NCBI GenBank assembly: GCA_963813065.1
Contig: CAWEXP010000008.1
Coordinates: 9,289-73,288 of the forward strand
From: Candidatus Kaiserbacteria bacterium
GTDB taxonomy: Bacteria > Patescibacteriota > Minisyncoccia > Phycocordibacterales > Phycocordibacteraceae
Direction of reading: 5' to 3'
Length of the DNA: 64,000 bases
Below are positions 5,349-62,679 of this stretch, piece by piece. The position numbers and the translations under genes are program-made. The notes beneath the pieces were generated by a model that did not search any database, was not told the DNA's origin, and was given only the letters and a program-made list of their open reading frames with translations. The stretch's first letter is position 1. Each line of letters begins with the position of its first letter.

Positions 5349-6299
5349 ATGAGCGCCGTTATGCCCAGCGCATCGACACCCACTCTCTCCGCGCCGACCA
5401 ACACCAACGCCAACGCCTCCCTCCCGCCCGACGTCTCGATGTCGGGCGGTTCTGCACTCCTCGCCTATTCGGGCCCCGCCGGCACCATCGCCGACGTCGC
5501 CAGCTCGACCCAGCCGGATACCATCTCGGTCTACGAGGTTCGCCCCGGCGACACGCTCTCGCAAATCGCCAACCTTTTTGACGTCTCGGTGAACACCATT
5601 GTCTGGGCCAACAATCTCGGGAGCGTGAAGGATGTTCACCCGGGCGATACGCTCATCATCTTGCCGGTATCGGGCATCCAGCGCGTCATCGCGAAGGGCG
5701 ACACCCTTAAATCGCTGGCCAAGAAATATGGCGCCGATGCGACCGAAATCGCCGAATTCAACGGCCTCGACCCTGCGGCACCGCTCGCGGTCGGCGACAC
5801 CCTCATCATCCCCGGCGGCGAGCTCAATGCACCGGCGCCCGCAGGCGCAAAGGCGTCAGCCAAGGCTTCGAGAGAAATCTATGAGCCCTATCTCGGCGGC
5901 TCGGGCGCGGCACTCGCGGGCTATTACACCGACCCGCTCCCCGGCGCGCCGGTCACCCAGGGCATCCACGGTTGGAATGCGGTTGACCTCGGCGCCGCCA
6001 AGGGTACGCCCATCCACGCCGCCGCCGACGGCATCGCCATCATCGCCAAGGACAATGGTTCCTGGAACGGTGGCTACGGCAATTACGTCGTAATCTCGCA
6101 CCCCAATGGCACTCAGACTCTCTATGCACACATGAAAGCCACGGCCGTCGCGGCTGGCTCGCCGGTTTCGCAGGGTCAAGTCATCGGCTATGTCGGCATG
6201 ACGGGCCTCACCACCGGGCCACACCTCCACTTCGAAGTCCGCGGTGCCAAGAATCCTTTTGCCAATTGCCCCGTCGGAAGCGTCTGCAGTCCGCAGTAG
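5349..6299 (+). CDS. LysM-domain M23-family peptidoglycan endopeptidase
   Basis: Two LysM-like repeats (YEVRPGDTLSQIA..., VIAKGDTLKSLAKKYG). M23 signatures: HNGT...YAHM and TGPHLHFEV. Forty-six in-frame codons upstream (5211..5348) encode a signal-peptide-like hydrophobic segment but lack a canonical start codon. Confidence 0.8.
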   Translation: MSAVMPSASTPTLSAPTNTNANASLPPDVSMSGGSALLAYSGPAGTIADVASSTQPDTISVYEVRPGDTLSQIANLFDVSVNTIVWANNLGSVKDVHPGDTLIILPVSGIQRVIAKGDTLKSLAKKYGADATEIAEFNGLDPAAPLAVGDTLIIPGGELNAPAPAGAKASAKASREIYEPYLGGSGAALAGYYTDPLPGAPVTQGIHGWNAVDLGAAKGTPIHAAADGIAIIAKDNGSWNGGYGNYVVISHPNGTQTLYAHMKATAVAAGSPVSQGQVIGYVGMTGLTTGPHLHFEVRGAKNPFANCPVGSVCSPQ

Positions 6300-7130
6300 C
6301 TAGCGTTTTTCAATAAAGAAATTCTTTCCCATTTTCACTTTCAGCGCGCGGGCCTTCCGCGCGTTTCTTGTTATTTTGATCTTGTGCCGTGCTTTTATGA
6401 GGAGCAGTCGATCAAACTCGCTCCGCACCACTTCGTCGAACGTCTCGTGTTCCCGGTACAGCACGTCAACATCCCGAGCCACCACGGGATCAAGGTGCGC
6501 CTCGGTAATGTAGTCACCAATGACCACCACATAACGATTGCGCTCAGGAAAAATCTCCTCCATGTGGTACTGCCGGAGATCGCTGTCAAAATCTTTTTGA
6601 ATCACCTTATCGAGCGGATCCGTGCCGCCCACCGTCATGAGGAACTGTCGCCCGCTCTTCGCAATGTCCGCGACCAGCTTCTTCTCCGTCTCGGCGCGCG
6701 CGAGATAGAAGAAATAATGCGGATCATAGGTGTAAACCGGCTCGGTCACGGGCGTTTGATTAATAATAAGGCTTTGCGAATGGCCCCAGAACGTGTCGAG
6801 ATGTCGCGTATTCGAGAAGATGTACGAGACACTCTCCTTCTCGCCGAGCGCGAGAACGCCTGTTTCCTCCCTTTTCGGCAGATAGACTTCTTGCACCTGT
6901 TCCGCGACCGAGGCCAGTTCCTTCACCCAGGCAACATTCAACGCCACGTTCTTTTTATAAATAGTGATGGACTCCTCGGCCTCGAGTTTCCGCAGTGCCG
7001 CATAGAAACCCTGCTTGGTTACCTTCTTCTCTTCGGCAATCGCGGCCAGGAGCGTAGTGGTTCGCCGCTCGCCGCCCCGCAGGCGGTAGAGAATCCGTTC
7101 TTCTATATCTATAGGCTTGAGCAGGCTCAT
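6300..7130 (-). CDS. winged-HTH regulator-like protein, paralog family A
   Basis: N-terminal wHTH (RILYRLRGGERRTTTLLAAIAEEKKVTKQGFYAALRKLEAEE). Its C-terminal domain shares LDxFW, PHDxF and KAxALKxK...F motifs with 7556..8362 and 22138..22950. Confidence 0.6.
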   Translation of the reverse strand: MSLLKPIDIEERILYRLRGGERRTTTLLAAIAEEKKVTKQGFYAALRKLEAEESITIYKKNVALNVAWVKELASVAEQVQEVYLPKREETGVLALGEKESVSYIFSNTRHLDTFWGHSQSLIINQTPVTEPVYTYDPHYFFYLARAETEKKLVADIAKSGRQFLMTVGGTDPLDKVIQKDFDSDLRQYHMEEIFPERNRYVVVIGDYITEAHLDPVVARDVDVLYREHETFDEVVRSEFDRLLLIKARHKIKITRNARKARALKVKMGKNFFIEKR

Positions 7131-7268
7131 GGGTAGAATAGTATCAGAAAGTAAACTATTTATTTACTATTTGGCCATAATAGGCTATATTTTGTACAAA
7201 GTCAAACATTACGCGTATTCTCGGGGCAGACAAAGGGCGGGATGGTCTCGCCCTGAATGGAGGTAGCC

Positions 7269-7478
7269 ATGAAAAATCCTATGATCTTGGTCTACATTGG
7301 GCTCCTACTGCTTGGTGTTTTCGTCGCTGGCGAACTCATAACGAATCTCCTCGATCTCACCACCTACGGACATTTTGACTTGTGGGTCGAGTATGGATGC
7401 CCGATTGCACTGCTTAGCCTTGCACTGATCCTTGTGGGTGTCCTCTTAGAGAATGCCAAAAGCGGACCACACCCCTGA
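7269..7478 (+). CDS. small two-TM membrane protein (69 aa)
   Basis: GGAGG sits 7 nt before ATG 7269. Hydrophobic sequence MKNPMILVYIGLLLLGVFVAG... Followed by the terminator at 7491..7519. Confidence 0.45.
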   Translation: MKNPMILVYIGLLLLGVFVAGELITNLLDLTTYGHFDLWVEYGCPIALLSLALILVGVLLENAKSGPHP

Positions 7479-7490
7479 CTAGCGAACTCA

Positions 7491-7519
7491 AGAGCCCCGC
7501 AATGCGGGGCTCTTTTCTA
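7491..7519 (+). terminator. Rho-independent terminator
   Basis: agagccccgc-aat-gcggggctct stem followed by TCTTTT. Confidence 0.6.
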
Positions 7520-7538
7520 TACAAAACCGAGCATATCT

Positions 7539-7553
7539 ATTAAACTTTTAGTT
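7539..7553. repeat. left copy of a perfect 15-bp inverted repeat (attaaacttttagtt) bracketing gene 7556..8362
   Basis: Its reverse complement aactaaaagtttaat recurs exactly at 8362..8376. Confidence 0.7.
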
Positions 7554-7555
7554 GT

Positions 7556-8362
7556 ATGCAGAAAGCGCACGAGCAAATGCGGGAGCGAATAATTGAAACG
7601 CTTGCGGAAGGACCGCGGGAGAAGGTGGCCCTGCGCGATGAGGTCGTCGGCACCAAGCTCACGGTGCAGGGATTCTACAAAGCGCTTGCGAGATTGCGCG
7701 CCGAAGAGGTAGTGACGGTTCACAAAGGGTCCGTCAGTCTCGCGGTCGTGTGGATCCAACACCAAATGCGGCGCTTAGAGGAGATGGCGAGCGTGTATGG
7801 CATCCCGGCATATCGGAGCTATTTCGGCTCGCTGAAGAATGGCAAGAGGCTGTCTTTCACCTTTAAAAATTTGCGTGAGCTCGATCTCTTCTGGACCCAG
7901 GCGGCGCTTATCGCGATTGAGGGCGCGCCAAAGGACACGCCCGTTATTTCATTTCTCCCCCACGACTGGTTCGATGTCGTGCGCCCAAGCAGTTCCGAGA
8001 TTTGGTTCAAGATGCTAGGCAAACGGAATCCACACGTGAACGTCATCACGTACGCGACCCGAGAAGAAAAGAAATTGAGCGAGCACCCGGGTGTGACCAA
8101 GATCGAGAACATGTTTGGCGAGAATCCGCTCCAGCAAAAAGAATCGGACTATGTGAATATGATTGGTGATTTAATTTTCGAAGTGAAGCTCGATGAATCG
8201 GTTCTCTCGGGAATCAGAAACGCGATGCGCGGCGAGCCAGTCGACATAAACAAGCTAACCGCGAAGACGGGCGTCTTCAAACTCTCCATCAAGCGCGACC
8301 CCGCAAAAGCATTGGCTCTTAAAAAGAAAATCCAAAAGTATTTCTCCATTCGCCTCTTTTAA
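7556..8362 (+). CDS. winged-HTH regulator-like protein, paralog family A
   Basis: Paralog of 6300..7130 and 22138..22950 (shared LDLFW, PHDWF, KALALKKKIQKYF motifs). Divergently arranged with 6300..7130. Confidence 0.6.
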   Translation: MQKAHEQMRERIIETLAEGPREKVALRDEVVGTKLTVQGFYKALARLRAEEVVTVHKGSVSLAVVWIQHQMRRLEEMASVYGIPAYRSYFGSLKNGKRLSFTFKNLRELDLFWTQAALIAIEGAPKDTPVISFLPHDWFDVVRPSSSEIWFKMLGKRNPHVNVITYATREEKKLSEHPGVTKIENMFGENPLQQKESDYVNMIGDLIFEVKLDESVLSGIRNAMRGEPVDINKLTAKTGVFKLSIKRDPAKALALKKKIQKYFSIRLF

Positions 8363-8376
8363 ACTAAAAGTTTAAT
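8362..8376. repeat. right copy of the 15-bp inverted repeat (aactaaaagtttaat)
   Basis: Begins at the stop codon of 7556..8362. Exact reverse complement of 7539..7553. Confidence 0.7.
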
Positions 8377-8474
8377 TATGGTCGTTTGATGACTGTTTCT
8401 TTTACTTTTATTCACATTCGCATAAATCTGCCCGTAGGAAGTCTGGGTGATCATTTATTACGAAGGAGGATGAC

Positions 8475-9290
8475 GTGCTCAAGGAAGAAGAATTCGATTG
8501 GTGGAGTGAGCGAGTTACGAACGAGATCTACCTCTCGACCCACCGCGCGGACTGGTGGAAGTTTTGCGGAATTGTTGCTGAGTTGCTGGCTCCGCAAGAA
8601 AATATGATTGATGTCGGGACCGGCGATGGGCATACGCTCTGGCAAATCGTTTCCCACGCATCGACTATGGACACATTCCGTATCAAACGAATCGATCTAC
8701 TCGAACCGAGTGGAGCTGGGCTTCATTGTGCTGTACGACGTTGTTGCGAGCTTCCGACGTTCTCCTTCAGCGCATATCAAGCGCGTTTCGATCAGTTTGT
8801 AGACTACCAGAGAAGACACGTCGAGACGGGACAGATTCCCAGACAGTATGACGCACTCTTTGCCAGCCACGTGAACTACTACCTTGGTGCCGCGGACACC
8901 GTACAAGGACGAGGCAGATACTTCGCGGCGCTTGACGCAATGACAGACCTCGCGCGCACGGTCATTCTCGTGACCGCACCGCGTGAGAGCGACTACTACA
9001 AAATGGTATCGAATCCGTTCGGAAATTATGTCTATAGCGCTGTGGTTGCGGCACACTACCGCTCACGCGGATTCCAGGTTGAGGTGACTGGTACGACGAT
9101 GCGTTTCTACGTGGAACATGTAAACCAGAGTCGACATGAAGCAGTGGTGCTCTGGAAGTTCTTCAACAACACTGAGCGTCAGCCTACCAACGCTGAGCTC
9201 TCGGCGTTTATCACGAACGCAAATCGCGTGAAAGATGGAGATGGAAATATAAATTTTCGCGATGACATTCTCGTCGTCACTGCTCAGTGA
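8475..9290 (+). CDS. putative SAM-dependent methyltransferase-like protein
   Basis: GTG start with AGGAGG 5 nt upstream. Motif-I-like IDVGTGDGHTL. Terminator downstream. Confidence 0.45.
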   Translation: MLKEEEFDWWSERVTNEIYLSTHRADWWKFCGIVAELLAPQENMIDVGTGDGHTLWQIVSHASTMDTFRIKRIDLLEPSGAGLHCAVRRCCELPTFSFSAYQARFDQFVDYQRRHVETGQIPRQYDALFASHVNYYLGAADTVQGRGRYFAALDAMTDLARTVILVTAPRESDYYKMVSNPFGNYVYSAVVAAHYRSRGFQVEVTGTTMRFYVEHVNQSRHEAVVLWKFFNNTERQPTNAELSAFITNANRVKDGDGNINFRDDILVVTAQ

Positions 9291-9306
9291 AACACTCTAT
9301 ACCTTG

Positions 9307-9333
9307 CCGCCCGATGAAATCGGGCGGTTTTTT
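9307..9333 (+). terminator. Rho-independent terminator
   Basis: ccgcccgat-gaa-atcgggcgg stem followed by TTTTTT. Confidence 0.6.
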
Positions 9334-9352
9334 ATTCAAAACCAAACAAGCC
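9333..9352. repeat. direct repeat DR-L (tattcaaaaccaaacaagcc), a duplicate of the comM 3' terminus
   Basis: Matches 10406..10425 at 19 of 20 positions. Its reverse complement encodes G-L-F-G-F-E-stop, identical to the comM C-terminus. Confidence 0.7.
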
Positions 9353-9365
9353 TTTGCAGTGAAAT

Positions 9366-10199
9366 TTATAAGTTGAGATGATTTCTTAAATCTGTATGCG
9401 ATATTTTAAGACCTTGATCTGTTGCGTAATTCAAACGCACAGCACCGCCAGGCAGTAGTTTCCCATTTTCTTTTAAAAAAGAAACATTTACCACTCGCTT
9501 CCCAAGGTCTTTTACTGCGTCAACAGCGGGAACATAGTCCTGATCACCAGACAGTATTACTGCCACATCATAAATATCCTTTAATTTCACGAGATCCGTG
9601 GCCAATTTTACGTCGACAGCTTTTTCCTTACCTAATCGTTTTTCAAAAAGATCATAGCGAATCGAGCCAGAACGTCGAAATTCAATTGCTGTAAAATCTC
9701 CTGCGATTTTATTTTGTATATAGGTCCAACCATCAAATCTACCCTTCATGTGTACTTGATTCTTCTCTAGTGCAGAAAGCATTCTGTCCATTCGATCTTT
9801 TTGAGCCGCATCATTTTGGCCCTTCGACAAATCTTCTGCCCATGGCGGATAGCTTGTTAGAATCTGCTTTAACAAAATTCGATCTTTACGAGCTGTATTT
9901 AAGTTGTACGGCGCACAATCCAGATTAGAGACTACATACCAATACGTTCTGACGCGATACGCATCTTTACCCGCTACCTCACAGGCAATCCAGTCGAAAA
10001 ATTTAGTCCAGTCTGCGTTTTTGGGTAAATAATCCCACTCATTAAAAATAGGCGTTGGGAACAGCTCAACTATCGAATGCCGAAGATTTTCTCCGTCAAC
10101 AAAAATACAGACTCGTTTACCGTGGTTGTGATCGGTGGGCATGAGCAAAGGCGGCTCGACGGCCGCCTTTGTTATATCACATTCTTTCCCCGAATCCAC
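9366..10199 (-). CDS. NYN/LabA-like domain protein (predicted RNase), 277 aa
   Basis: VCIFVDGENL ... VILSGDQDYVPAV motifs typical of NYN/LabA (PIN-like). AT-rich codon usage unlike its neighbours. Confidence 0.7.
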   Translation of the reverse strand: MDSGKECDITKAAVEPPLLMPTDHNHGKRVCIFVDGENLRHSIVELFPTPIFNEWDYLPKNADWTKFFDWIACEVAGKDAYRVRTYWYVVSNLDCAPYNLNTARKDRILLKQILTSYPPWAEDLSKGQNDAAQKDRMDRMLSALEKNQVHMKGRFDGWTYIQNKIAGDFTAIEFRRSGSIRYDLFEKRLGKEKAVDVKLATDLVKLKDIYDVAVILSGDQDYVPAVDAVKDLGKRVVNVSFLKENGKLLPGGAVRLNYATDQGLKISHTDLRNHLNL

Positions 10200-10322
10200 G
10201 GGGGTTACCCGTATGTTATGCGCGTGTTGTCTTTAAGTCAAGATGAAATTATCAGGATGTGCATATCGTTAAAATATAGAAATATCTAAGGAACAATTTC
10301 CTGTTGTTCTGTGAGACACCTT

Positions 10323-10358
10323 GAACCACCTCAGAATAAAAATATTCTGAGGTGGTTC
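10323..10358. other. perfect 16-bp stem-loop (gaaccacctcagaata-aaaa-tattctgaggtggttc) between comM and the cassette gene
   Basis: Read directly from the sequence. No flanking U-tract on either strand. Confidence 0.6.
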
Positions 10359-10404
10359 GCATCTGAACCGGTTATCAAGTGATGTGGTTCGTCTAAAATC
10401 CCAA

Positions 10405-11970
10405 CTATTCAAATCCAAACAAGCCACGCGGACGATACTGGAGGGCCTCGTGCACGAACGCGGGGACAACCGAGTCGGCGCCCGCGAGGTCGGCGATGGT
10501 ACGCGCGACGCGCATGGTGCGATGGTACGCGCGCGGCGATAGTTTCATCCGTGCGGCGGCTTGCGTCAACGTCTCTTTGCTCGCGGTGGTGAAGCCGCTC
10601 TTCTCGTCGAGTTCGCGGCTCGTGAGGTGCGCGTTTGTTGCACCCTTCTTCCCTGTTCTCTTTTCTGCGCGAGCGCGCGCGGCAAGAACGCGCGCGCGAA
10701 CTTTTTCTGAGGATTCTCCGGTGGCAAGTTTCGAGAGTGTCTCGTGCGGGACAAGCGGTACTTCGATCCAGAGATCAAGGCGGTCAACAATCGGCCGCGA
10801 GATCTTGCGTGCCTGACGCAACGCGGCGCGCACATTCGTGACGGCGTCTTCAGAGAGCGTCTCGGCCGGATTCATCGCCGCGACAATCATGCAATCCGCC
10901 GGGAAGGTGATGGTCGCGCGAGCGCGCGAGACCGTGACGATTCTGTCTTCGAGCGGTTGGCGCAGAGCCTCGAGCGCCCGCGCCTCGAACTCGGGGAATT
11001 CGTCGAGAAATAAAACGCCCTTGTGTGCGAGCGTCACCTCACCCGCCTTGGGGAATGCGCCGCCGCCCACGATGGCGACGTGCGAGACCGAGTGGTGCGG
11101 CGCACGGAAGGGTGGCCAGTACACCGCTTCGCCTTCTTTTAATAATCCCGCAGTCGAGTGTATCGCGGTTACTTCGAGCACTTCGTCGTTGGTGAGGGGT
11201 GGGAGGATGCCGGACAAAGCGCGGGCGAGCATCGTCTTGCCGGTGCCCGGCGGACCATAGAAAACGATATTGTGCCGACCCGCGGCGGCGATTTCGAGTG
11301 CACGCTTAGCGCTCTCCTGCCCCTTCACATCCGCGAGGTCGATGGCGGGCGGAGGCGGCACCGCGACGCGCTCGCGCACGAGCCGCGGTAATCTTTTTTC
11401 ACCTTTCAAATGTTGTAAAAGATCGGCCAAAGTCTCGGGCGCATAGACCGCGACACCCTCGGCGAGCAAGGCTTCGCGCGCGTTGCCTGGCGGGACATAC
11501 ACTGTTTTCACGCCTTTTCTCTTGGCGGCCAAGACCTGTGGCAAGACGCCGCGCGTCGAGCGGAGCGTGCCGTCGAGTGCAAGTTCTCCTGCAAACAATG
11601 CTTCTTCTTCGAGTGCTTTCAAATCGTCAGCCGCGATCAGATACGCGAGCGCGAGCGGCAAGTCATAATGCGAACCTTCTTTCTTCAAGTCCGCGGGCGA
11701 GAGCGAGAGAATTATTTTTTTATTTTGTTGCTTGGGCGGCTTGTAGCCCGAGTGACGAATCGCGGCGCTGACGCGATCGCGCGCTTCCTCGACTGCCTTG
11801 TCGGCGAGCCCGACGACGGAGAACGCATGGAGTCCGCGCGTGAGATCGGCCTCGACCGATACGAGTTCGGCCGCCGCACCGACCGGTTGTGCGGCAAGCG
11901 TCTTCGCGTAGCCGTGTTTCGGTTGCGCGACTTTTTTCTGCGCGGGTTGTGGAGAGTGCGAGCTCGACAC
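10405..11970 (-). CDS. comM: ComM/YifB-family Mg-chelatase-like AAA+ ATPase
   Basis: N-terminal Lon-like domain, Walker [11 protein letters not shown], Walker [11 protein letters not shown]. 521 aa. Confidence 0.85.
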
Positions 11971-14532: not shown

Positions 14533-15459
14533 ATGTGCGAAGCTTGGTGGTATCCTAAGCAGATGAACGCCGAAGCGGCCAAGCGACAATTTTTGGAATA
14601 TATCGAGATTGAGCGCGGACGCGCGGTGAAGACGATTGAGAACTATGACCACTACCTGACACGATTTTTCCTGCACGCGAATATCAAGAATACGGGCGAC
14701 ATTACCGAAGAGAAAATTCGTGAGTTTCGTTTGTGGTTAAACCGGCAGGAGGGCGTCGAGGGCTCGATGAAGCGCCGCACGCAGAATTATTATCTCATCG
14801 CCCTGCGCGCATTCCTTAAGTTCTTGCGTAAGCGCGACATCGCGGGCATCTCGCCCGAGCGCATCGAGCTCGCCAAGCTCCCCGAGCGCTCACTCGACCT
14901 CATCACGAGCGCCGAACTCGGCCGTCTGCTCGCGGCGACCGACGGCGCCGACGAGAAATCGCTCCGCGACAAAGCAATTCTCGAATTATTTTTCTCCACG
15001 GGCCTGCGCGTCTCCGAGCTCTGCTCGCTCGATTCCGACCTCGACCTTTCGCGCGACGAATTCTCGGTCCGCGGCAAGGGCGAGAAAGTGCGCGTCGTCT
15101 TCCTCTCCCCTTCTGCCAAGGAGGCGGTGCGGCATTATTTGAAAGCGCGCAAGGATATGGGCGAGGCGCTCTTCGTCAATGTCGCCAAGAGCCGTGCGCG
15201 TGGCGAGCGACTCACGCCGCGCGCCATCGAGATGATGATAAAAACGTACGCCGCGAAGGCGGGCATCACCAAGAAAGTGACGCCGCACGTCCTGCGCCAT
15301 TCGTTTGCAACTGACCTCCTGCAAAACGGCGCCGACATCCGCTCGGTCCAGCAACTCCTCGGCCACGCCTCCATCAACACGACGCAAATCTACACGCACC
15401 TCACCGACACGCACCTGCGCGATGTCCATAAAAAGTTCCATTCTCGCGGCAGGAATTAA
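14533..15459 (+). CDS. xerC: tyrosine site-specific recombinase XerC/XerD family
   Basis: C-terminal catalytic motifs RHSFATDLLQNGADIRSVQQLLGHASINTTQIYTHL. Whether this is XerC or XerD is not resolved. Confidence 0.85.
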   Translation: MCEAWWYPKQMNAEAAKRQFLEYIEIERGRAVKTIENYDHYLTRFFLHANIKNTGDITEEKIREFRLWLNRQEGVEGSMKRRTQNYYLIALRAFLKFLRKRDIAGISPERIELAKLPERSLDLITSAELGRLLAATDGADEKSLRDKAILELFFSTGLRVSELCSLDSDLDLSRDEFSVRGKGEKVRVVFLSPSAKEAVRHYLKARKDMGEALFVNVAKSRARGERLTPRAIEMMIKTYAAKAGITKKVTPHVLRHSFATDLLQNGADIRSVQQLLGHASINTTQIYTHLTDTHLRDVHKKFHSRGRN

Positions 15460-21694: not shown

Positions 21695-21766
21695 GCCCCG
21701 ATGGTGAAATGGATATCACAACAGCCTTCGAAGCTGTTGTTCCAGGTTCGAATCCTGGTCGGGGCA
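21695..21766 (+). tRNA. tRNA-Arg (anticodon TCG)
   Basis: Manual cloverleaf: acceptor GCCCCGA/TCGGGGC, D-arm GTGA-AATGGATA-TCAC, anticodon loop CTTCGAA, T-arm CCAGG-TTCGAAT-CCTGG. Confidence 0.8.
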
Positions 21767-21805
21767 CTACTTCGCTCAGAGTACTGAGCTTCGCAGTGCA
21801 AGCAC
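21761..21805. repeat. attL-like repeat overlapping the last 6 nt of tRNA-Arg
   Basis: ggggcactacttcgctc is identical to 27503..27519. The following ~28 nt are about 80% identical. Confidence 0.6.
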
Positions 21806-22137: not shown

Positions 22138-22950
22138 GTGATTTTCACCACACAAGAGACACTTGAAGACCGCATCATCCGGCTGGTGCTTGAAGAGAAG
22201 GCAAGCATCAAGGCGCTCCACCAACGCCTCGCGGGAGAGGAGAAGCTCTCCCTCCGCGCGGTCTACAAGGCCGTCGACAAGCTGATTGGCGCCGGCGTGC
22301 TCATTAAAGCGGGTCAGCGGGTGGTGCTGAGCGCAGAGTGGGCGGGAAGAGTCGTCGAGGGGTTACAGACTTCTCCTTTGTCGGTGCTCGGCGAGGGCGA
22401 ACGAGCGGTCTACACCTTCGCGAGCATGGAACATCTCGACGCCTTCTGGAAAACGGTAGTTCTACCGCTCGAGGCGGCGGCCGAGGAGAAAGAAATCTTC
22501 TTCTACAATCCCCACGACTTCTGGGCGTATCTCCCCGAGCGGCGGGAGAGCGAGGATGCCTATTACCGACATTTTGCAGCAACCGGGAGGCATGGTTTCT
22601 TGGTTGTTGGCGGTGAGTCGCTGGCAGATCGAGAGTTTAAGCGCACATACCAGAACGAAAACTTCCAAATTGATACGCGAAATGTGAGTTCTCTCGCACG
22701 CCGAGACCATCTCACCATCCTCGGGCCACTGGTTATAACCGTCCGCCTGCCTAAAAAGCTTGCGGCCCATATCGACGATCTCTACGCATCGGGGAAGGCG
22801 ATGTCGGCGCTCCTGCCGAGCGTGCTCGAGGCTTGCCGGGCACCCGGGACACTACGCTTTGTCCTTGAGAACCATCCGGCGAAAGCGAAGAGAATTAAAC
22901 AGCTATTGGCTAAGAATTTCTATTTCAAACAGCACGAGGGCATGTTATAG
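22138..22950 (+). CDS. winged-HTH regulator-like protein, paralog family A
   Basis: Paralog of 6300..7130 and 7556..8362 (LDAFW, PHDFW, KAKRIKQLLAKNFYF). Confidence 0.6.
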   Translation: MIFTTQETLEDRIIRLVLEEKASIKALHQRLAGEEKLSLRAVYKAVDKLIGAGVLIKAGQRVVLSAEWAGRVVEGLQTSPLSVLGEGERAVYTFASMEHLDAFWKTVVLPLEAAAEEKEIFFYNPHDFWAYLPERRESEDAYYRHFAATGRHGFLVVGGESLADREFKRTYQNENFQIDTRNVSSLARRDHLTILGPLVITVRLPKKLAAHIDDLYASGKAMSALLPSVLEACRAPGTLRFVLENHPAKAKRIKQLLAKNFYFKQHEGML

Positions 22951-23923: not shown

Positions 23924-25336
23924 CTAATCCGCGAGCGTGATTTGCCGGTCATTCAATATCAACCGATCTCGCAAGTGCTCCAGCAGCTCCCGCTTCTCCT
24001 CTCGGCTGCCATTCTTCAGCAGATACTTAGCGTATTTGCGTATGTCCATCTCCTTGGCCTCGATGGTGTCCATAGTGCCATCCACCTCCGCTCGCAGCTT
24101 GTTGTACCGGGACACCTCGCGCTCGATGAGGTGCCGCGCCCCGATCTCGTCGAGGGAGATGCGGTCGATAAGAGTGGCGAGCTGCTCAAGCACGCGCTCC
24201 TCCCGCAGATACGGGTTCTTGCACTGGGTATCCTTGGCGCGAGAGCAGGAGTAATAGATGTACGATACCGGCTCTCCGGTACTGAGCAGTTTAGATTTTT
24301 CTTGCGCTGTGATGCCTGAGCCGCAGTACCCGCAGAGGAGGAGCTTGGTGAAGTTCCATTCCTTGAATCTGGTCTTTGGGCGATTCTCCTCTGCGATCTT
24401 TTCTTGTACCGCTTGGAATAATTCCTGAGTGATGAGCGGCGTATGCTTGCCGGTATACCAATTGCTCGAGCCTCGTGGATATTCGAAGACGCCACAGTAG
24501 AAGGGATTCTTGAGCATTTTGTATAGGGTAGATAGGTTCATGCTCTTGCCGATTCGGGAGGCGAAGTGCACATCGCGCTTGAGCCACCCGTGTACCTTGC
24601 GGCCGCTCCAACGCTCGACACCAACTTTCTCAAACACTTGCTTGATGATAGGGGAGCGGACTGGATCAACGAGTACCTCACAGCGATGATCCTTTCGACC
24701 ATCATTCAAGTATCCCGTTGGCGCGATGCCAGGCCAGAGTCCCATTTCGACTCGCGCTCTGAGACCGCGCTTCACGTTGACGCGCTTGTTGTCGTTCTCG
24801 AGCTTGGCCTGCGAGCCGAGAATCATGAGCAAGAACTTCTCATTCGGGTTATTGCCGAACCGCTGGCCGTACGTCCTAATGTCCACCAAGTGCTTGCTGT
24901 CCATCAGGTCCACGATGCGGCCGAGGTCTCCGGCGTTCCTGCTAATGCGGTCTGGTGCCCAGGTTAAGATGCCGTTGAACTTCCCGGCCTTCAGCTCCTC
25001 CACGATCTCGTTGAACACCGGCCGCGCCCCGGCTTCCTTGGCCGAGTGCGATTCGCGCTTCATTTCGACAATCTCCAATTTCTCCTTCTTCGCCAAGGCG
25101 AGCATCTCCTTCACCTGGCTCTCGATGCTCAATACCTGCTGTTCCTCACTCTCTGTGCTCTTGCGAGCGTAGAGGCAATACCGCACCGTCTGCACCTCCA
25201 CCAAGGGAGGAGCCGCCCCGAAACCGCCCTGAATCATTGCTGTTTCCATTGTTATTGCCGTTATTGCTAACGGTCTAAGGGATGACGCAACCCCTCGCGG
25301 GTGTCCAGCGAGGGGTTGTTGGTATCTTTTAATCAA
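23924..25336 (-). CDS. large serine recombinase (resolvase N-terminal domain + recombinase domain + zinc ribbon)
   Basis: [20 protein letters not shown] catalytic-Ser motif, recombinase domain and C-terminal Cys cluster. The true start is probably an internal Met near 25249. Confidence 0.85.
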
Positions 25337-27502: not shown

Positions 27503-27548
27503 GGGGCACTACTTCGCTCGGATTACCGAGCTACGCAGTGCACGGCAC
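27503..27548. repeat. attR-like repeat
   Basis: See 21761..21805. Preceded by ccagttcagtacagtgaggg, which resembles a degraded tRNA T-arm and acceptor. Confidence 0.6.
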
Positions 27549-56833: not shown

Positions 56834-57855
56834 AATCCGAACACTCGAATTTCATGCGCCTCGGCGCTTTTTTCGTTTCCGTACCGCAGCTAATGCTTCC
56901 GCCGGAGTTTTGTATTGGAGGCATTTCAGTATCCTCCGGTTCAGCTTGTCCTCGAGCTTTTGTATAAATGCCTTTGAATAGCGAGAAATGTTTGCGCCTT
57001 TCGGTATGTCTTTGCGTATGACGCCGTTTGTATTCTCAACCGTTCCTTTCTCCCAGGAGTGATACGGCCGACAGAAATAGATGCGCACCCCCAGAAGAGT
57101 GGCGAGTGCCTGATGATCTCGGAACAAAATATCGTTGTCAGTGGTGATGGTGCGGAGCTCGGGGAATCTCTGTTGAATGCGGAGGAATGCCCGGTGCACG
57201 TTCGCCACTGACACATCGAGAATGCGTTCGATGAACGTGACGCGGAGCTTCCGGTCGACCACCACGAGCAGGATGCCTCTGCCAGTCTTGCCCGAGACAA
57301 TGAAGTCAGCCTCGACATCTCCGCTCCTCGAACGAGCGTTGATATGCCTGGGCCGTTTGTCGATGAAGGTTCGCTCTGAAAGAGCCGCGACTCTCGGGTG
57401 ATACTTTCTTCGTTTCTGCTTTCGCGCGTTCCGATGCGACTCAATTCTCCGGCCATACACGCTTTTGATGAATCGGTACACGCCGTCTTTCGAGATGGTC
57501 GGCAGACGCTTGGCATACTTCCGGACTCTTCCGGCGATGTTCTCGGGCGATTGGTCGTCATACAACAGCTCTTCCACGAGTGAACGCAGACCCGCATGCC
57601 CGACGATCTTCATGCCTTGATACTTCGCGTACTTTCTTCGTGCATACGCCTTGTGTGCAGCCTTCTGTACATCATACAAACCTCGCACTCGATTCCTCTT
57701 CAACTCTTCCGAGATGCTGGAAACACTGCGGCCAAGAGCTCGAGCAATCGCACGGAGCGAATACTTCTTGCGCTTCAGTATTGAAATCTCAGACCGCTCG
57801 CTCGTGCTCAGCTGCTTCCAACGTTTCTTTTTTCATGCACGCACAATACCGCGAG
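56834..57855. mobile_element. IS30-family insertion sequence (~1.02 kb)
   Basis: 14-bp terminal inverted repeats aatccgaacactcg (56834..56847) and cgagtgttcggatt (57842..57855) bracket an IS30-type transposase gene. Confidence 0.7.
56852..57826 (-). CDS. IS30-family transposase, N-terminal HTH region out of frame at an A6 tract
   Basis: DDE core with HSWEKGTVENTNGVIRKDIPKG. ATG at 57826 gives MKKETLEAAEHERAV-stop, whereas removing one A at 57818..57823 yields MKKKRWKQLSTSERSEISILKRKKYSLRAIARALGRSVSSISEELKRNRV..., a full IS30 N-terminus. Confidence 0.7.
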   Translation of the reverse strand, partial: KRWKQLSTSERSEISILKRKKYSLRAIARALGRSVSSISEELKRNRVRGLYDVQKAAHKAYARRKYAKYQGMKIVGHAGLRSLVEELLYDDQSPENIAGRVRKYAKRLPTISKDGVYRFIKSVYGRRIESHRNARKQKRRKYHPRVAALSERTFIDKRPRHINARSRSGDVEADFIVSGKTGRGILLVVVDRKLRVTFIERILDVSVANVHRAFLRIQQRFPELRTITTDNDILFRDHQALATLLGVRIYFCRPYHSWEKGTVENTNGVIRKDIPKGANISRYSKAFIQKLEDKLNRRILKCLQYKTPAEALAAVRKRKKRRGA

Positions 57856-60084: not shown

Positions 60085-60714
60085 ATGGTCCTCGCTTTAA
60101 CCGTCGTCATCCTCATCCTCTCGATTATCGCGCACGAGGTCGCGCACGGCTACGCCGCCGACGCACTTGGCGATCCCACCGCGCGGCTCGCCGGTCGCCT
60201 GACGCTCAATCCGCTCCCACACATCGACCTCGTGGGCTCTATCCTCGTCCCTGCGCTCCTCATTTTTTCGGGCTCACCCATCCTCTTCGGCTGGGCGAAA
60301 CCGGTACCCTACAATCCGTACAATCTGCGCAATCACCGTTGGGGCGAATTTGTTGTCGCCATCGCGGGCATCGCGACCAATGTTGCACTCGCACTCATCT
60401 TCGGTTTTATTGCTCGGTGGGGTGGGGGATTCGGCCTCTCCGCGGCGGCGGTCTCACTCGCGGGCACCATCGCCTTCGTGAACCTCTTCTTGGGCATGTT
60501 CAATCTCATCCCCTTCCCGCCGCTCGACGGCTTTACTGCGCTCCGCTCTGCACTGCCCTGGAATCTCGCGCGCGGCCTCAACACCTTCGAGCACCAGATT
60601 CGCTCGACCGGCCCCGTGGCGCTCCTCCTCTTCCTCCTCGTCTTCTCCTATATCCTCGCCAATCCCTTCTTCAATCTTGTTTCTTGGATTTTCAAACTTA
60701 TTGTGGGCGGGTAG
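60085..60714 (+). CDS. site-2 protease family (peptidase M50) membrane metalloprotease
   Basis: HEVAHGYAA HExxH motif within a TM helix. Polytopic membrane protein. Confidence 0.7.
   Translation: MVLALTVVILILSIIAHEVAHGYAADALGDPTARLAGRLTLNPLPHIDLVGSILVPALLIFSGSPILFGWAKPVPYNPYNLRNHRWGEFVVAIAGIATNVALALIFGFIARWGGGFGLSAAAVSLAGTIAFVNLFLGMFNLIPFPPLDGFTALRSALPWNLARGLNTFEHQIRSTGPVALLLFLLVFSYILANPFFNLVSWIFKLIVGG
60643..60714. repeat. copy A of a 72-bp direct repeat (the current 3' end of the M50 gene)
   Basis: About 85% identical to 62608..62679. Both encode FSYILANPFF(N/D)LVSWIF(K/R)LI(V/T)GG-stop. Confidence 0.65.
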
Positions 60715-62607
60715 TTCCAACAGCGACCTAAATTCTCTGGCCACCAAGAAGGTAGTATCATGCCTGCAATGCTTCTTAGTGCAAAATCTTCGTTCGGTGG
60801 ATTCTGGACGGCGACTATCTTTGTCGTTACAGACGCGTGGAAGAATAACCGTCGGCTATTTATCCTGACAACACTGGCTTCGGTGCTGGTTGCGGTACTC
60901 CCGTATGCAGTTAACGGCACCCAAGCTTTGTTGCTGAATGAACTCGCCGCTTCTGTAACGCACGGTTTTGTGCCACAGAAGATAGTGTTGCTTATCGCTG
61001 TCATCGGAGTTTTATTTCTTATGCGTGATGCGGTATCGCTTGTGTATGCGTATCTCGATCGAATTCTCTACCATCGAGGAGCAAAACTTCGTCAGATGGA
61101 GTTTTCTGCGAAAATGCTCGAGCTCGACCAGGCGACTCATGAAGATCCAAAGTTTCAGGACGAGCTGCAAGTCTTAAACGAGCATAGCTCGACCTATGTA
61201 ATACCGAACTTCCTGGACTCGCTTACCAGTAATGCGCAGAACGTTTTTGGTTTCGCAACCGCCGCCTTAATTGTCCTTGCGATTGACTGGAGACTCTTTT
61301 TCCTCATCGTCATATTCAGCATTCCCCGCTTATACGTGGAACTGAAGTACGGGCGGCAGTTGTGGGGATTCTTCCACTCGCAGTCAGAAGACCGACGCCG
61401 TTTCAGAGAATTCAGTCGGCAAATTGATTCAGAGAGCATCGCCGAGCTTCAAACGTTCCAGTCCGAGCCCTTCTTTCTTGGCCGGATGGACTCGATGCTT
61501 GAACGATGGTTTAACGGCCAGATTGCCGAGGATCGAAAGAAGTTCTGGCTTTCATCGCTCGCACAGATTTTTGCTACTACTGCAATCGTTGTTGCTTTGG
61601 CCCTCCTGGTCTACCAGAGCCTCAACGGCAGGATGCACGTGGGAACACTGGTGTTCGCTATTTCCTCGATAGTCGGACTCCAGGGTTCGGTTTCAGGATT
61701 TTTCTTAGGTCTCGGCAGTATTTCGCGTTTTGCGCGACCCACGAATGCCTACCAAGCAATTATGAAGCGAACACGCTTGGTGCAGCTTCCGGTTCATGGT
61801 GTGCGGCGAACGTTCATCAAAGCGCCGCGCATCGAGTTTCGGAATGTTACGTTTGCGTATCCGAGTAGGCCTGACCGCCCCATCTTAAAAAACTTCAATT
61901 TAACCATCGAACCTGGTGAACGTCTCGCGATTATCGGTATCAACGGCGCGGGCAAATCCACACTCATAAAACTTCTATGCCGGTTCTATGATCCGACAGA
62001 AGGGCAGGTGCTGATAGATGGTATTGACCTTCGAGAGATGGATCTTGCCGATTGGTATCGCATCCTGTCGTTGCTTTCGCAGGACTTCAATAGGTACCGA
62101 TTTCGGGTTGATGAGAACATCGGTCTTGGTCGCAGTGACTCGTCTCCAGATCGAGCGCGAGTGGAGGACTCCTCTATACGCGCGGAAGCGGATGAATTTA
62201 TATCGAAATGGGAAGGTTCCTACGAACAGCAGATTGGCACACAGTTCGGTGGGGTAGACCCCTCAGGAGGTCAGTGGCAAAAGCTGGCGCTTGCCCGAAC
62301 GCTCTATCGAGGTGCGCTGGTGACCATACTTGATGAACCAACGGCACACGTGGATGCTTCTGCCGAGCAACACATATTCGAGCGATTGTATGGGCAAGTG
62401 AGCCGTGACCAGACGCTCATCATCATTTCGCACCGTTTCTCGACGATACGTAATGCGGATCGGGTCTGTGTTATCGAAGATGGTCACGAAGTTGAGGTCG
62501 GCTCCCATGACGAGCTCATGAAGCTCGACGGAACCTACGCCCGTCTCTTCACGACTCAAGCAGAACAGTACCAATAGGCACTTTGAGGCAACAACTTGCT
62601 CATCATG
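60715..62607. mobile_element. single-gene cassette (ABC exporter) inserted at the 3' end of the M50 protease gene; no integrase inside
   Basis: Flanked by the duplicated gene terminus. A 24-codon orphan mini-ORF (62605..62679) reproduces the M50 C-terminus. Confidence 0.45.
60760..62577 (+). CDS. ABC transporter, fused permease/ATP-binding protein (exporter type)
   Basis: Six-TM N-terminal domain. Walker A GINGAGKST, signature PSGGQWQKLALART, Walker B ILDEPTAHVD. Confidence 0.9.
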   Translation: MPAMLLSAKSSFGGFWTATIFVVTDAWKNNRRLFILTTLASVLVAVLPYAVNGTQALLLNELAASVTHGFVPQKIVLLIAVIGVLFLMRDAVSLVYAYLDRILYHRGAKLRQMEFSAKMLELDQATHEDPKFQDELQVLNEHSSTYVIPNFLDSLTSNAQNVFGFATAALIVLAIDWRLFFLIVIFSIPRLYVELKYGRQLWGFFHSQSEDRRRFREFSRQIDSESIAELQTFQSEPFFLGRMDSMLERWFNGQIAEDRKKFWLSSLAQIFATTAIVVALALLVYQSLNGRMHVGTLVFAISSIVGLQGSVSGFFLGLGSISRFARPTNAYQAIMKRTRLVQLPVHGVRRTFIKAPRIEFRNVTFAYPSRPDRPILKNFNLTIEPGERLAIIGINGAGKSTLIKLLCRFYDPTEGQVLIDGIDLREMDLADWYRILSLLSQDFNRYRFRVDENIGLGRSDSSPDRARVEDSSIRAEADEFISKWEGSYEQQIGTQFGGVDPSGGQWQKLALARTLYRGALVTILDEPTAHVDASAEQHIFERLYGQVSRDQTLIIISHRFSTIRNADRVCVIEDGHEVEVGSHDELMKLDGTYARLFTTQAEQYQ

Positions 62608-62679
62608 TTCTCCTACATCCTCGCCAACCCCTTCTTCGACCTCGTGTCTTGGATTTTCCGGCTCATAACGGGAGGGTAG
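62608..62679. repeat. copy B of the 72-bp direct repeat (displaced duplicate of the M50 3' end)
   Basis: See 60643..60714. Preceded by ATG 62605, in frame. Confidence 0.65.

Follow-up and report, generated by a model that had tools for sequence, protein, structure and literature searches.

The arrangement known as "insertion with long target duplication" (ILTD; Nobusato et al. 2000; Furuta, Abe and Kobayashi 2010, PMC2853133) involves restriction-modification gene units of the addiction type, which are accompanied by no mobility genes and occur mostly in competent species. The flanking repeats are long, vary in size (30 to about 400 bp) and have no further copies in the genome, the insert's GC content is unlike that of the host, and an overlap of the repeat with a gene's 3' end is possible, as for a 46-bp repeat in Haemophilus influenzae; the mechanism was never explained (PMC2853133). 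The CIMEs (cis-mobilizable elements) of streptococci are integrase-less elements of 1.2-13 kb that are flanked by att sites at the 3' ends of conserved genes and form tandem arrays there. By definition they derive from ICEs or IMEs by decay, and the cognate integrase of a co-resident element acts on their att sites (PMC7563491). The composite SCC islands of staphylococci contain modules at orfX delimited by 15-bp direct repeats (PMC7029739), and minimal mobile elements have been described in Neisseria (Saunders and Snyder 2002; PMC3787668). Patescibacteria (CPR) exchange many genes, mostly with one another (PMC12455944). Their genomes are tiny, and the route by which single genes become integrated has not been worked out so far.

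The window, a stretch of 64,000 nucleotides from Candidatus Kaiserbacteria, a tiny groundwater bacterium, carries a small insertion behind comM. The target gene comM (10405..11970, minus strand) is intact and encodes an Mg-chelatase-like AAA+ competence helicase of 521 amino acids that matches Pfam Mg_chelatase (5.5e-79), ChlI and Mg_chelatase_C, and its synteny is kept in 80 related loci. The sequence TATTCAAAACCAAACAAGCC at 9333-9352 and the sequence TATTCAAATCCAAACAAGCC at 10406-10425 are identical in 19 of 20 positions and are the only two matches of the 20-mer in 64 kb when up to three mismatches are allowed (chance expectation, 0.01). The gene-attached copy of the comM terminus (T1, 10405..10425, minus strand) consists of the last six codons plus TAG and reads GGC TTG TTT GGA TTT GAA TAG, i.e. 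GLFGFE and a stop codon. The displaced copy (T2, 9332..9352, minus strand), located 13 nt past the stop codon of the NYN gene, reads GGC TTG TTT GGT TTT GAA TAA and encodes the same peptide followed by a stop codon. The earlier note had described both copies as encoding the same terminal peptide plus a stop and had tied them to an insertion; both points are borne out, and the 20-mer is not a genome-wide motif. The longest exact runs common to T1 and T2 are only 11 and 8 nt. As regards an IMEX, an Xer-dependent element that integrates at a dif-like site with XerC and XerD arms, inspection of the 20-mer by eye revealed no dyad symmetry, and the target sequences differ between genes. The GC3 of the last 11 codons of comM is 0.36, compared with 0.72 in the preceding 100 codons; relative to the trend in the related loci, it is lower by ~2 SD.

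The stretch from comM to the LysM/M23 peptidase gene (5349..6299, plus strand), its conserved convergent neighbour with identities of 47-76% among the related loci reaching that gene, is a hotspot of variable DNA with the peptidase gene at its far edge. The extra DNA in the window fills the entire stretch of 6300-10404 (4.1 kb), in which the NYN segment is the newest, comM-proximal layer. The earlier claim of an insertion at the 3' end of comM stands, whereas the 1.05-kb segment is only part of the extra DNA. The older accessory layer (6300..9290) comprises hyp276 (6300-7130, minus strand), hyp73 (7257-7478, plus strand), hyp268 (7556-8362, plus strand) and the Methyltransf_12-like hyp271 (8475-9290, plus strand), whose GC3 values are 0.57-0.68. 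None of the four was found at this position in the 80 related comM loci, and a distant hyp276/hyp268 homologue is present in one of these loci alone (L006), elsewhere in the locus. A canonical bidirectional intrinsic terminator (9304..9331), with a stem at 9306-9328 followed by a T-run, adjoins the left copy of the 20-mer. The terminator serves the methyltransferase-like gene, and its position before the insertion would have been behind comM. The arrangement at comM is identical in an independent assembly (Logan contig L001).

Comparisons with the relatives, for which 80 loci per gene were examined, showed that the site predicted to exist without an insert is present. The gap between comM and the LysM/M23 gene is <100 bp, with a single copy of the terminus, in 33 of 70 related loci, all of them from other species rather than from a same-species pair, and 32 of the 70 carry 0.34-4.2 kb of unrelated cargo behind comM. 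A sister strain preserving the exact site before insertion was not available, because hyp271 has only 10 homologues, none of them close. The cargo census covered 53 gap ORFs from 31 of the 33 occupied comM sites. The 25 best-matching Pfam families of these ORFs include Fic, 23S_rRNA_IVP, HicA, NUDIX and enolase, and the census contains one IS200 Y1 transposase; no integrase or resolvase was detected by Pfam among the 53 ORFs, nor was any evident on reading the ORFs of the other inserts. A larger island with VirB4/TraG-like genes lies behind comM in one locus (L039).

The ~1.05 kb between the two 20-mers contains one gene of the LabA/NYN family with its own promoter and leader, and no recombinase gene. 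The GC content of 0.40-0.43 over 9201-10200 is the minimum of the window and rises to 0.64 at 10400, and the NYN ORF has a GC3 of 0.35 vs. 0.69-0.82 in the neighbouring core genes. The earlier description of a low-GC, single-gene segment that lacks a recombinase is accurate. The non-coding head of the insert (10246..10404, minus strand) contains a hairpin with a perfect 16-bp stem (10323-10338/10343-10358), also as described, which was not called by the terminator scan and whose exact sequence had 0 hits in the metagenome contigs. The head is not common to the NYN homologues elsewhere and may be comM-downstream sequence or a terminator of the donor. A search for further copies, proposed in the earlier note, turned up no additional cassette, hairpin or 20-mer, either elsewhere in the window or in the metagenome collection that was searched. 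The stretch of 9353-10404 is not flanked by terminal inverted repeats, and its only hairpin is at one end. An NYN homologue in another locus (L086) is bracketed by 90-nt inverted repeats, which are absent at the comM insert. The insert therefore does not match a MITE, another non-autonomous transposon or an IS200/IS605-type palindrome-associated element, which would have terminal inverted repeats with a short target duplication or subterminal hairpins at both ends.

The promoter-like site and the conserved two-hairpin 5' leader occupy 10143..10245 (minus strand). The predicted promoter is TTGACT-17-TAACAT (10241-10213), and alignment against the leaders of homologues showed compensatory changes in both leader hairpins (10188-10203 and 10146-10171); the Rfam scan gave no match, either for the leader or for an attC-type element. 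The ORF of 9366..10199 is a gene as proposed, except that it probably starts at ATG 10142 and not at GTG 10199, giving a cargo gene at 9366..10142 (minus strand). The resulting protein of 258 amino acids is identical to the database protein P0001, matches Pfam NYN with an E-value of 1.5e-12 (48.7 bits vs. a cut-off of 24.2) and has 924 homologues, and Asp16, Asp177, Asp200 and Asp202 are invariant in 39 of them. The AlphaFold2 model (pLDDT of 94) shows a PIN-like RNase fold with a long helical insertion, its sole significant fold match in the PDB being 2qip. Judged by the modelled NYN/PIN-like fold and the conserved acidic residues, the cargo belongs to LabA/NYN (PF01936) and is predicted to be RNase-like. 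The closest homologues (72% nucleotide identity) are located away from comM and have only the promoter, leader and ORF in common with the insert, so that the idea of a mobile cassette family is not upheld. Overall, the comM insertion is recent, foreign and positioned exactly at the comM stop codon.

The second instance noted within the window, at the gene of an M50-type metalloprotease (60085..60714, plus strand), was confirmed. A gene of a fused permease/ATPase ABC exporter of 605 amino acids (60760..62577, plus strand) lies between the gene-attached terminus (T1, 60630-60714) and a displaced terminus (T2, 62595..62679, plus strand) that is in frame, ends in TAG and is 79% identical to T1, the repeat being 85-87 nt long. 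The exporter gene has a GC3 of 0.55 vs. 0.76 for the M50 gene, and none of the 80 related loci carries it downstream of M50. The last 13 codons of the M50 gene are AT3-rich and resemble the insert. Since the GC3 of both the comM and the M50 terminus is insert-like, these gene ends look imported; the base composition suggests that the termini now in use arrived with the inserts, the evidence being stronger for M50 than for comM.

A scan of ~1.5 Mb of related DNA showed that the scar of a repeated gene terminus recurs in 14 events at seven genes (comM, M50, rpmB, recJ, xer, labA and one unnamed). Apart from the two events in the window, scars were found at comM (L008, L027, L037 and L048), labA (L021), xer (L026), recJ (L094), an unnamed ORF (L107) and rpmB (L140 and L113, with two events each in arrays of three terminus copies), and they stem from many studies and assemblers. 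The scan gave 13 hits in the downstream direction, whereas the upstream-direction control gave three, each a secondary match of repeats already found. The comM fragments in the gaps are always C-terminal and never internal. Every insert is AT-richer than its host, and the inserts are small (about 0.4-1.9 kb); the cargo of the other events includes toxin-antitoxin pairs, Fic, four-helix-bundle proteins, the ABC exporter and others. The repeats measure 20, 49, 49, 65 and 90 nt at comM in five genomes, 43-57 nt at rpmB and 20-90 nt over all events. On the right they end anywhere between -10 and +21, counted from the stop codon, their left boundaries differ between events at one gene, and no conserved core common to the repeats was found. 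The earlier reading of the repeat as a signature of site-specific integration is not supported: there is no defined att site, and repeats of 20-90 nt at seven genes have shifting ends. The recurrence of the scar in the relatives suggests gene gain without a dedicated recombinase, and its frequency suggests that members of the group commonly acquire genes in this way.

The differences between T1 and T2 are of a coding type. Third codon positions account for 46 of 65 differences (binomial p = 8e-10), and all 10 differences in L008 are synonymous, indicating that the copies are termini of different lineages rather than a fresh target duplication. In L037 and at M50, T1 is host-like in its left part and T2 is AT-rich there, with the pattern reversed on the right, a mosaic switch in GC that would result from a crossover inside the repeat. 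The coding-type differences and the mosaic switching together argue that what looks like a duplicated target is in fact an orthologous gene end that was imported and recombined with the resident end. Across all 12 pairs, the GC bias between T1 and T2 does not run in a consistent direction (52 vs. 45 sites), an observation that counts against insertion by host recombination.

The explanation preferred here, to which a probability of about one half is given, is that host recombination inserted incoming DNA bearing a homologous gene end. The repeats are best read as two versions of the comM terminus, one that arrived with the incoming DNA and one that is the displaced resident, rather than as the work of a cassette-specific recombinase or as a newly made target duplication. 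The donor would be a different Parcubacteria lineage with the cargo already placed behind comM, and its DNA would enter the cell. Uptake by natural transformation is plausible, since the window contains the genes of ComEC (54310-55899), of the type IV pilus ATPase and platform and of ComM; a cultivated CPR bacterium has been shown to be naturally competent (PMC10633639). General host recombination would then integrate the DNA via the short, highly conserved homology of the gene end. This could take place by a reciprocal Campbell-type crossover with a circularised fragment, or by a double crossover with a long and a short arm, in which the distal copy of the terminus would provide a portable arm of homology on the right. 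One 40-bp arm and one long arm suffice to transform Vibrio cholerae exonuclease mutants (10.1101/127308). Both options would yield the gene, T1, the cargo and T2 in this order with the target gene intact, and each newcomer would land beside the gene, so that arrays would accumulate. A donor genome with comM followed immediately by this hairpin and the NYN gene was not found, the closest NYN homologues being in other contexts.

Several observations sit uneasily with insertion by host recombination. A repeat of 20 nt at 95% identity is short for RecA-dependent exchange. All the detected repeats are ~90 nt or shorter, which calls for the extra assumption that longer repeats were deleted or that donor fragments were short. 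The model gives no account of the first T2 copy. Repeats resembling attL and attR and gene-proximal growth of arrays are equally expected from site-specific accretion.

The foremost alternative, which is the model of the earlier note, is a non-autonomous element flanked by att sites, like a CIME or an SCC module, that is moved in trans by a site-specific recombinase acting at the comM terminus and restores the reading frame with a mimic of the gene end. Such an element would account for direct repeats that bracket the insert with both copies ending at a stop codon and for a comM end in use that looks imported, and a selected mimic would likewise diverge chiefly at synonymous sites. The three-copy arrays at rpmB bring to mind how CIMEs accrete at rpmG, rpsI, fda and rplL (PMC7563491), as well as the modules flanked by direct repeats at orfX (PMC7029739). 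The window also encodes an Xer-type tyrosine recombinase (14533-15459), its only Phage_integrase protein, and a large serine recombinase (23924-25336), which the earlier note had put forward as mobilisers. However, the Xer gene is a syntenic housekeeping core gene in the relatives, and the serine recombinase lies in a separate region bracketed by 40-nt repeats that have nothing in common with the comM 20-mer, so neither is retained in this role. The lack of any integrase or resolvase in the census and in the other inserts, the left boundary that varies between events at a single gene (20-90 nt at comM, 43-57 nt at rpmB), the loose right boundary and the lack of a second cassette, hairpin or 20-mer in the sequences searched also count against it, and seven unrelated targets would call for either many recombinases or a single enzyme of great promiscuity. 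Movement of a CIME- or SCC-like element in trans is unlikely, and gained no positive support.

A larger, integrase-bearing island that entered at the 3' end of comM and was then reduced by deletion, integrase included, to attL, a single cargo gene and attR is quite improbable. CPR genomes are streamlined and deletion-prone, which counts in its favour, as does the larger island behind comM in L039. CIMEs arise by such decay (PMC7563491). However, only 13 nt separate T2 from the NYN stop codon and 160 nt separate T1 from the NYN promoter, so that a near-surgical deletion would be required, the recombinase would have to be lost in 14 of 14 events, and the inserts are uniformly small. A true long duplication of the target at insertion, for example by filling in of staggered breaks, with the copies drifting later, is the literal sense of the term coined for restriction-modification genes (PMC2853133), and the repeats in L026 (54/55 nt identical) and L107 (33/33) are nearly perfect. 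It is nevertheless highly improbable, because the non-coding T2 should drift without regard to codons, contrary to the third-position and synonymous bias, and because the change in GC along the mosaic repeats of L037 and M50 speaks for two parental sequences. The absence of any insertion, i.e. a chance repeat, an ancestral arrangement lost elsewhere or an assembly chimera at a conserved k-mer, is scarcely credible even for a metagenome-assembled contig and a repeat of just 20 nt, given the chance expectation of 0.01 hits, the NYN GC3 of 0.35 vs. ~0.7 in the host, the same path in the independent Logan assembly, exact runs of 11 and 8 nt that should be too short to confuse a k=31 graph, and 14 scar events from many studies and assemblers.

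With an imported gene end, the recombinase-free insertions that were described for restriction-modification genes 25 years ago would gain a concrete mechanism open to testing. A more general proposal is advanced tentatively and is rather less probable than the preferred explanation: CPR may host recombinase-independent cassettes in which the copy of the terminus is a portable homology arm, supplying the mechanism of ILTD. If so, units of mostly addiction or defence type would carry the last 20-90 nt of comM, rpmB, recJ, xer, labA or M50 and, once taken up, could be inserted by the host's own recombination behind the same gene in any related genome irrespective of the downstream sequence. The core gene would remain undisturbed, arrays of cassettes would accumulate beside it, and the mechanism missing for the ILTDs reported since 2000 would be at hand. 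In practice, a gene-end arm of 20-90 nt might suffice to target cargo behind core genes in transformable CPR.

Comparison with the described systems places the locus near several of them. With integron cassettes it shares single-gene, recombinase-free units, arrays and the frequent toxin-antitoxin genes, whereas here the unit has its own promoter and lies between copies of the terminus of a host gene. The unit does not fit an integron cassette, there being no attC-type imperfect palindrome and no integron integrase, and the sole hairpin being perfect and on the 5' side. SCC integrates at the 3' end of orfX (rlmH), and some SCC modules, e.g. ACME, lack ccr and depend on CcrAB in trans. Modules delimited by direct repeats at the end of one gene are a likeness; however, SCC uses one defined 15-bp site and dedicated large serine recombinases, whereas the repeats here are variable and the targets many. 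With no fixed site, and with the sole serine recombinase of the window tied to unrelated repeats, the locus does not fit an SCC-type cassette. The likeness to CIMEs extends to cargo without an integrase, direct repeats at the 3' ends of genes including those of ribosomal proteins, an intact target and decayed elements farthest from the target gene in arrays, the last being no proof of mechanism by itself. In contrast, an integrase-bearing partner, a fixed att core and a conjugation module were not found here (80 loci per gene), and with neither fixed-core attL/attR sites nor a cognate integrase the locus is not assigned to the CIMEs.

Minimal mobile elements show variable content between two conserved genes, exchanged by transformation and homologous recombination without a mobility gene. 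The comM-LysM/M23 hotspot fits this description, with 0-4.2 kb of variable content over 70 loci, 32 of them occupied and most without a scar. Minimal mobile elements, however, use both flanking genes as arms and have no duplicated terminus, whereas here both arms may stem from one gene end. The closest likeness in organisation is to ILTD: small units free of transposase and integrase, long variable direct repeats, deviating GC content and addiction-type cargo. The empty site with a single terminus copy in 33 of 70 loci, the absence of the ABC gene behind M50 in the relatives and an insert of 1.05 kb with one gene and no mobility gene, well within the <20 kb of ILTDs, agree with this; the comM repeat of 20-21 nt falls below the >30 bp of that system, whereas the M50 repeat (85-87 nt) and those of the sister events (about 33-90 nt) exceed it. 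The earlier suggestion of an undescribed class of elements was thus overstated, given the precedents (PMC2853133; CIMEs, PMC7563491; SCC, PMC7029739). The differences from ILTD are the cargo, which consists of NYN, toxin-antitoxin, Fic, four-helix-bundle, ABC exporter and other genes rather than restriction-modification genes, the anchoring of the repeats at or near the stop codons of conserved core genes, the three-copy arrays, the CPR host and the synonymous-type divergence, which indicates that one copy was imported and not duplicated in place.

A 20-mer with one mismatch between its two copies flanks the comM insert at 9333-9352 and 10406-10425; a search allowing up to three mismatches found no other match in the window (chance expectation 0.01). 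Read on the minus strand, the right copy encodes the final six codons and the TAG stop of comM, a 521-aa ORF (10405-11970) with the Pfam domains Mg_chelatase, ChlI and Mg_chelatase_C. The left copy encodes the same peptide, GLFGFE, followed by the stop codon TAA, and is adjoined by a canonical bidirectional terminator (9306-9328). The interval between the copies has the lowest GC content of the window (0.40-0.43), which rises abruptly to 0.64 at 10400, and its single gene has a GC3 of 0.35 compared with 0.69-0.82 in the adjacent core genes. The perfect 16-bp hairpin at 10323-10358 was verified. No further copy of it was found in the window, an exact search of the metagenome contigs gave 0 matches, and neither it nor the leader of the insert's gene matched a known RNA family of the Rfam type. 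The same arrangement is present in an independent Logan assembly. The duplicated comM terminus, the low-GC one-gene interval, the stem-loop and the lack of a recombinase in the insert, all described in the earlier note, were thus confirmed. Its second instance, at the M50 metalloprotease gene (60085-60714), is also real: an in-frame terminus copy of 85-87 nt (62595-62679), with 79% identity and ending in TAG, is located behind the gene of a 605-aa ABC exporter (60760-62577).

The probable start of the gene in the comM insert is ATG 10142, which gives a 258-aa protein (NYN258) identical to the database protein P0001. Its family is large and well conserved (~250 aa, 924 matches); members occur in Parcubacteria as well as on contigs several megabases long, and four aspartates, D16, D177, D200 and D202, do not vary among the homologues. 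The AlphaFold2 model (pLDDT 94) shows a predicted LabA/NYN core with a long helical insertion; 2qip is its sole significant fold match in the PDB, where no solved structure is homologous by sequence. PADLOC returned only weak NYN and HEC-09 matches and no secure defence-system assignment. The gene is preceded by its own promoter-like site on the minus strand. A conserved promoter and a ~75-nt 5' leader with two hairpins characterize the family, in the window (10143-10245) and upstream of the NYN genes of L085, L086, L094 and L002/L003 (L-numbers denote related loci or metagenome contigs). Compensatory base changes occur in both hairpins when homologues with 56-76% protein identity are compared, and the second hairpin is GC-rich and followed by a T-run, ending 3-8 nt ahead of the ATG. 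Judged from these sequence features, the leader looks like an attenuator or an autoregulatory target of the RNase. A mobile NYN cassette family aimed at gene ends was rejected, as the nearest homologues (L085-L093, 72% nucleotide identity) lie at sites other than comM and share with the window segment no more than the promoter, the leader and the ORF. In the Hainich groundwater contig L086, inverted repeats of ~90 nt (262-349 and 1587-1672; 58 nt at 88% and 33 nt at 91%) flank the closest homologue (75% amino acid identity), a transposon-like frame absent from the window copy.

A scan for comM gave 80 loci from genomes of related species, mostly named Candidatus Kaiserbacteria or Paceibacterota. 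The loci are strongly syntenic: xer (minus strand), labA, a gene for a 398-aa protein, dksA and comM precede a LysM/M23 peptidase gene in convergent orientation. In the 70 loci with both comM and the peptidase gene, all from other species, the gap between the two is <100 bp in 33, 133-187 bp in 5 and 344-4169 bp in 32. The 33 gaps of <100 bp represent the empty comM site that the earlier note had proposed to look for. The gap in the window measures 4105 bp (6300-10404) and contains five genes, none of which is at that place in any relative, indicating that the NYN segment is only the comM-proximal layer of a hotspot. A sister strain with the exact pre-insertion site was not found; for hyp271, a methyltransferase-like accessory ORF of the older layer (6300-9290), just 10 homologues were found, all of them distant and located away from comM. 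Nor was a donor genome found for the insert, and the relatives are too distant (comM ~75-79% nucleotide identity) for nearest-neighbour comparison to tell the native terminus copy from the imported one.

The cargo of the occupied gaps is small and unrelated between loci. A Pfam census of 53 gap ORFs gave, among the 25 best-matching families, Fic, 23S-rRNA-IVP four-helix-bundle, HicA, NUDIX, enolase, superoxide dismutase, GH114 and a TraG/AAA_10 pair, and no integrase or resolvase among these 25. The sole mobility gene seen in any occupied gap, also represented among the 25 families, encodes an IS200-like Y1 transposase (L030, 8182-8628). At least seven genomes have the 23S-rRNA-IVP gene behind comM. 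AT-rich repeats (ATTTAAAAATGTAAAYATATAA; tandem TTTAAAC/TTCTAAAC units) are located at every gene boundary of the gap cassettes in L020 (5678-7000) and L008 (6385-6447), most evidently before the 23S-rRNA-IVP gene.

The duplicated terminus recurs. Four further genomes carry a second comM terminus copy downstream of an insert, of 90 nt in L008, 49 nt each in L027 and L048, and 65 nt in L037, with differing cargo. A scan of comM loci (~1 Mb) and M50 loci (0.5 Mb) for long ORFs with a further, stop-terminated copy of their terminus downstream gave 13 matches; the upstream-direction control gave 3, all of which were secondary matches of the same repeats. Further scars were thereby found at labA (L021, 56 nt), xer (L026, 68 nt, spanning positions -47 to +21 relative to the stop codon), recJ (L094, 61 nt) and an unnamed ORF (L107, 33 nt). 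At rpmB, encoding ribosomal protein L28, arrays of three terminus copies (43-57 nt) enclose two cassettes in L140 (1400-2957) and in L113 (3343-4765, minus strand), the latter found by unbiased self-BLAST. The L113 cassettes resemble RelE/ParE-type toxin-antitoxin pairs by sequence, and those of L140 are two opposite-strand genes. The inserts measure ~0.4-1.9 kb and are AT-richer than the host in every case, and no recombinase-like ORF was seen in them (by Pfam scan for the comM gaps and by ORF inspection elsewhere). In total, 14 events at 7 genes were found in ~1.5 Mb, frequent enough to merit a systematic survey.

The earlier note explained the comM insert by site-specific integration, with a nearby recombinase acting in trans. 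The insertion of foreign DNA at a gene end stands, and completion of the reading frame by this DNA is supported. However, the repeat has no fixed left boundary within one gene, its length being 20-90 nt at comM and 43-57 nt at rpmB; its right boundary lies between -10 and +21 relative to the stop codon; and no common junction motif or shared element end was found over five comM events. These variable boundaries, together with seven unrelated targets and the lack of recombinases in the inserts, argue against a defined att site of one recombinase. The proposed helpers do not fit: the Xer-type recombinase (14533-15459) is a syntenic core gene, itself a scar target in L026, and the large serine recombinase (23924-25336, minus strand) lies within a region framed by 40-nt repeats unrelated to the comM 20-mer.

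These direct repeats (21761-21800 and 27503-27542; 36/40 identical) begin at the 3' end of a tRNA-Arg gene and frame 5.7 kb that also encodes a T4SS-pilin-like protein, an internal tRNA-Gly and a paralogue of the accessory ORFs hyp268 and hyp276. Since a 6-bp hairpin within the repeat differs between the two copies by compensatory changes, classical att sites are doubtful and it may be a structured repeat. The three ~270-aa paralogues (6300-7130, 7556-8362 and 22138-22950; 21-30% mutual identity) are all in accessory regions and have no Pfam match; in L095 a hyp268 homologue is paired with a hyp271 homologue, suggesting a two-gene module. An ORF at 56852-57703 (minus strand) matches the rve integrase core domain weakly, below the cut-off (28 against 32.6 bits), and may be a decayed IS remnant. 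Near the M50 locus, several metagenome contigs carry an intergenic, hairpin-containing short repeat, GGATTTGCGAGCGGGGTA...CGCTCGC, which looks like a REP-type element (L103 979-1017, 1778-1816 and 2622-2644; L107 1738-1768 and 2641-2671; L111 1963-1998 and 2663-2698).

In-place duplication of the gene end would leave two identical copies, of which the displaced one is non-coding and expected to decay randomly. Comparison of six pairs of gene-attached (T1) and displaced (T2) copies showed that 46 of the 65 differences are at third codon positions (binomial p = 8e-10), and all 10 differences in L008 are synonymous. The copies therefore diverged while both were functional gene ends, in different lineages, and one of them came with the insert; in-place duplication is an unlikely source. 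In L037 and the window M50 pair, where informative sites are numerous and the GC contrast is strong, T1 is host-like and T2 AT-rich on the left, and the reverse holds on the right, a switch that a reciprocal crossover inside the repeat would yield. Over 12 pairs, T1 was not consistently the AT-richer copy (52 vs. 45 sites), the switch being clear in these two only. The GC3 of the last 11 comM codons is 0.36 compared with 0.72 in the previous 100, about 2 SD under the trend of related loci, and that of the last 13 M50 codons is 0.38 compared with 0.69 in T2, which supports the completion of the reading frame by imported sequence. Gene replacement leaving random pseudogene remnants is ruled out, as sensitive tblastn of comM against all gaps found only fragments ending at the last residue and no internal ones.

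Host-mediated recombination through conserved gene-end homology on incoming DNA would explain the scars most economically. We infer two routes: a circular fragment would enter by Campbell-type integration, or a long-arm/short-arm transformation event would use the distal terminus copy as its short arm, for which 40 bp are enough in Vibrio cholerae exonuclease mutants (10.1101/127308). Either would produce the order gene, T1, cargo, T2, leaving the core gene intact, placing newcomers beside it and building arrays; in that case, the hairpin-bearing 160-nt head of the insert would represent sequence from downstream of the donor's comM. Genes for ComEC, for ComM and for the ATPase and platform protein of a type IV pilus are present in the window. 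Experiments on cultivated Saccharibacteria have demonstrated natural competence (PMC10633639), and most transfers detected in groundwater Patescibacteria are among Patescibacteria (PMC12455944). At 20 nt, the comM repeat is short for host recombination.

The insertion at the comM terminus is genuine and recent, lacks a recombinase and carries an imported gene end. Contrary to the claim of the earlier note, it does not belong to an undescribed class of site-specific cassettes, since this insertion mode has been reported. Integron cassettes, MITEs and IS200-type elements were excluded for the window segment. In its behaviour, the comM-LysM/M23 hotspot resembles the minimal mobile elements of Neisseria (PMC3787668). 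CIMEs (PMC7563491) and the direct-repeat-flanked SCC modules at orfX (PMC7029739) share the geometry of the scars, but their definition includes a cognate recombinase and a fixed core, neither of which was found here. The closest match is the insertion with long target duplication of restriction-modification units, which has no mobility genes, long variable repeats, possible overlap with gene 3' ends, inserts of deviant GC content and mostly competent hosts, and whose mechanism is unexplained (PMC2853133). The present cases differ from it in their cargo, their anchoring at core gene termini and the evidence for one imported repeat copy. The comM feature is thus best filed as a variant, in a CPR host, of this known but mechanistically unexplained mode of insertion.
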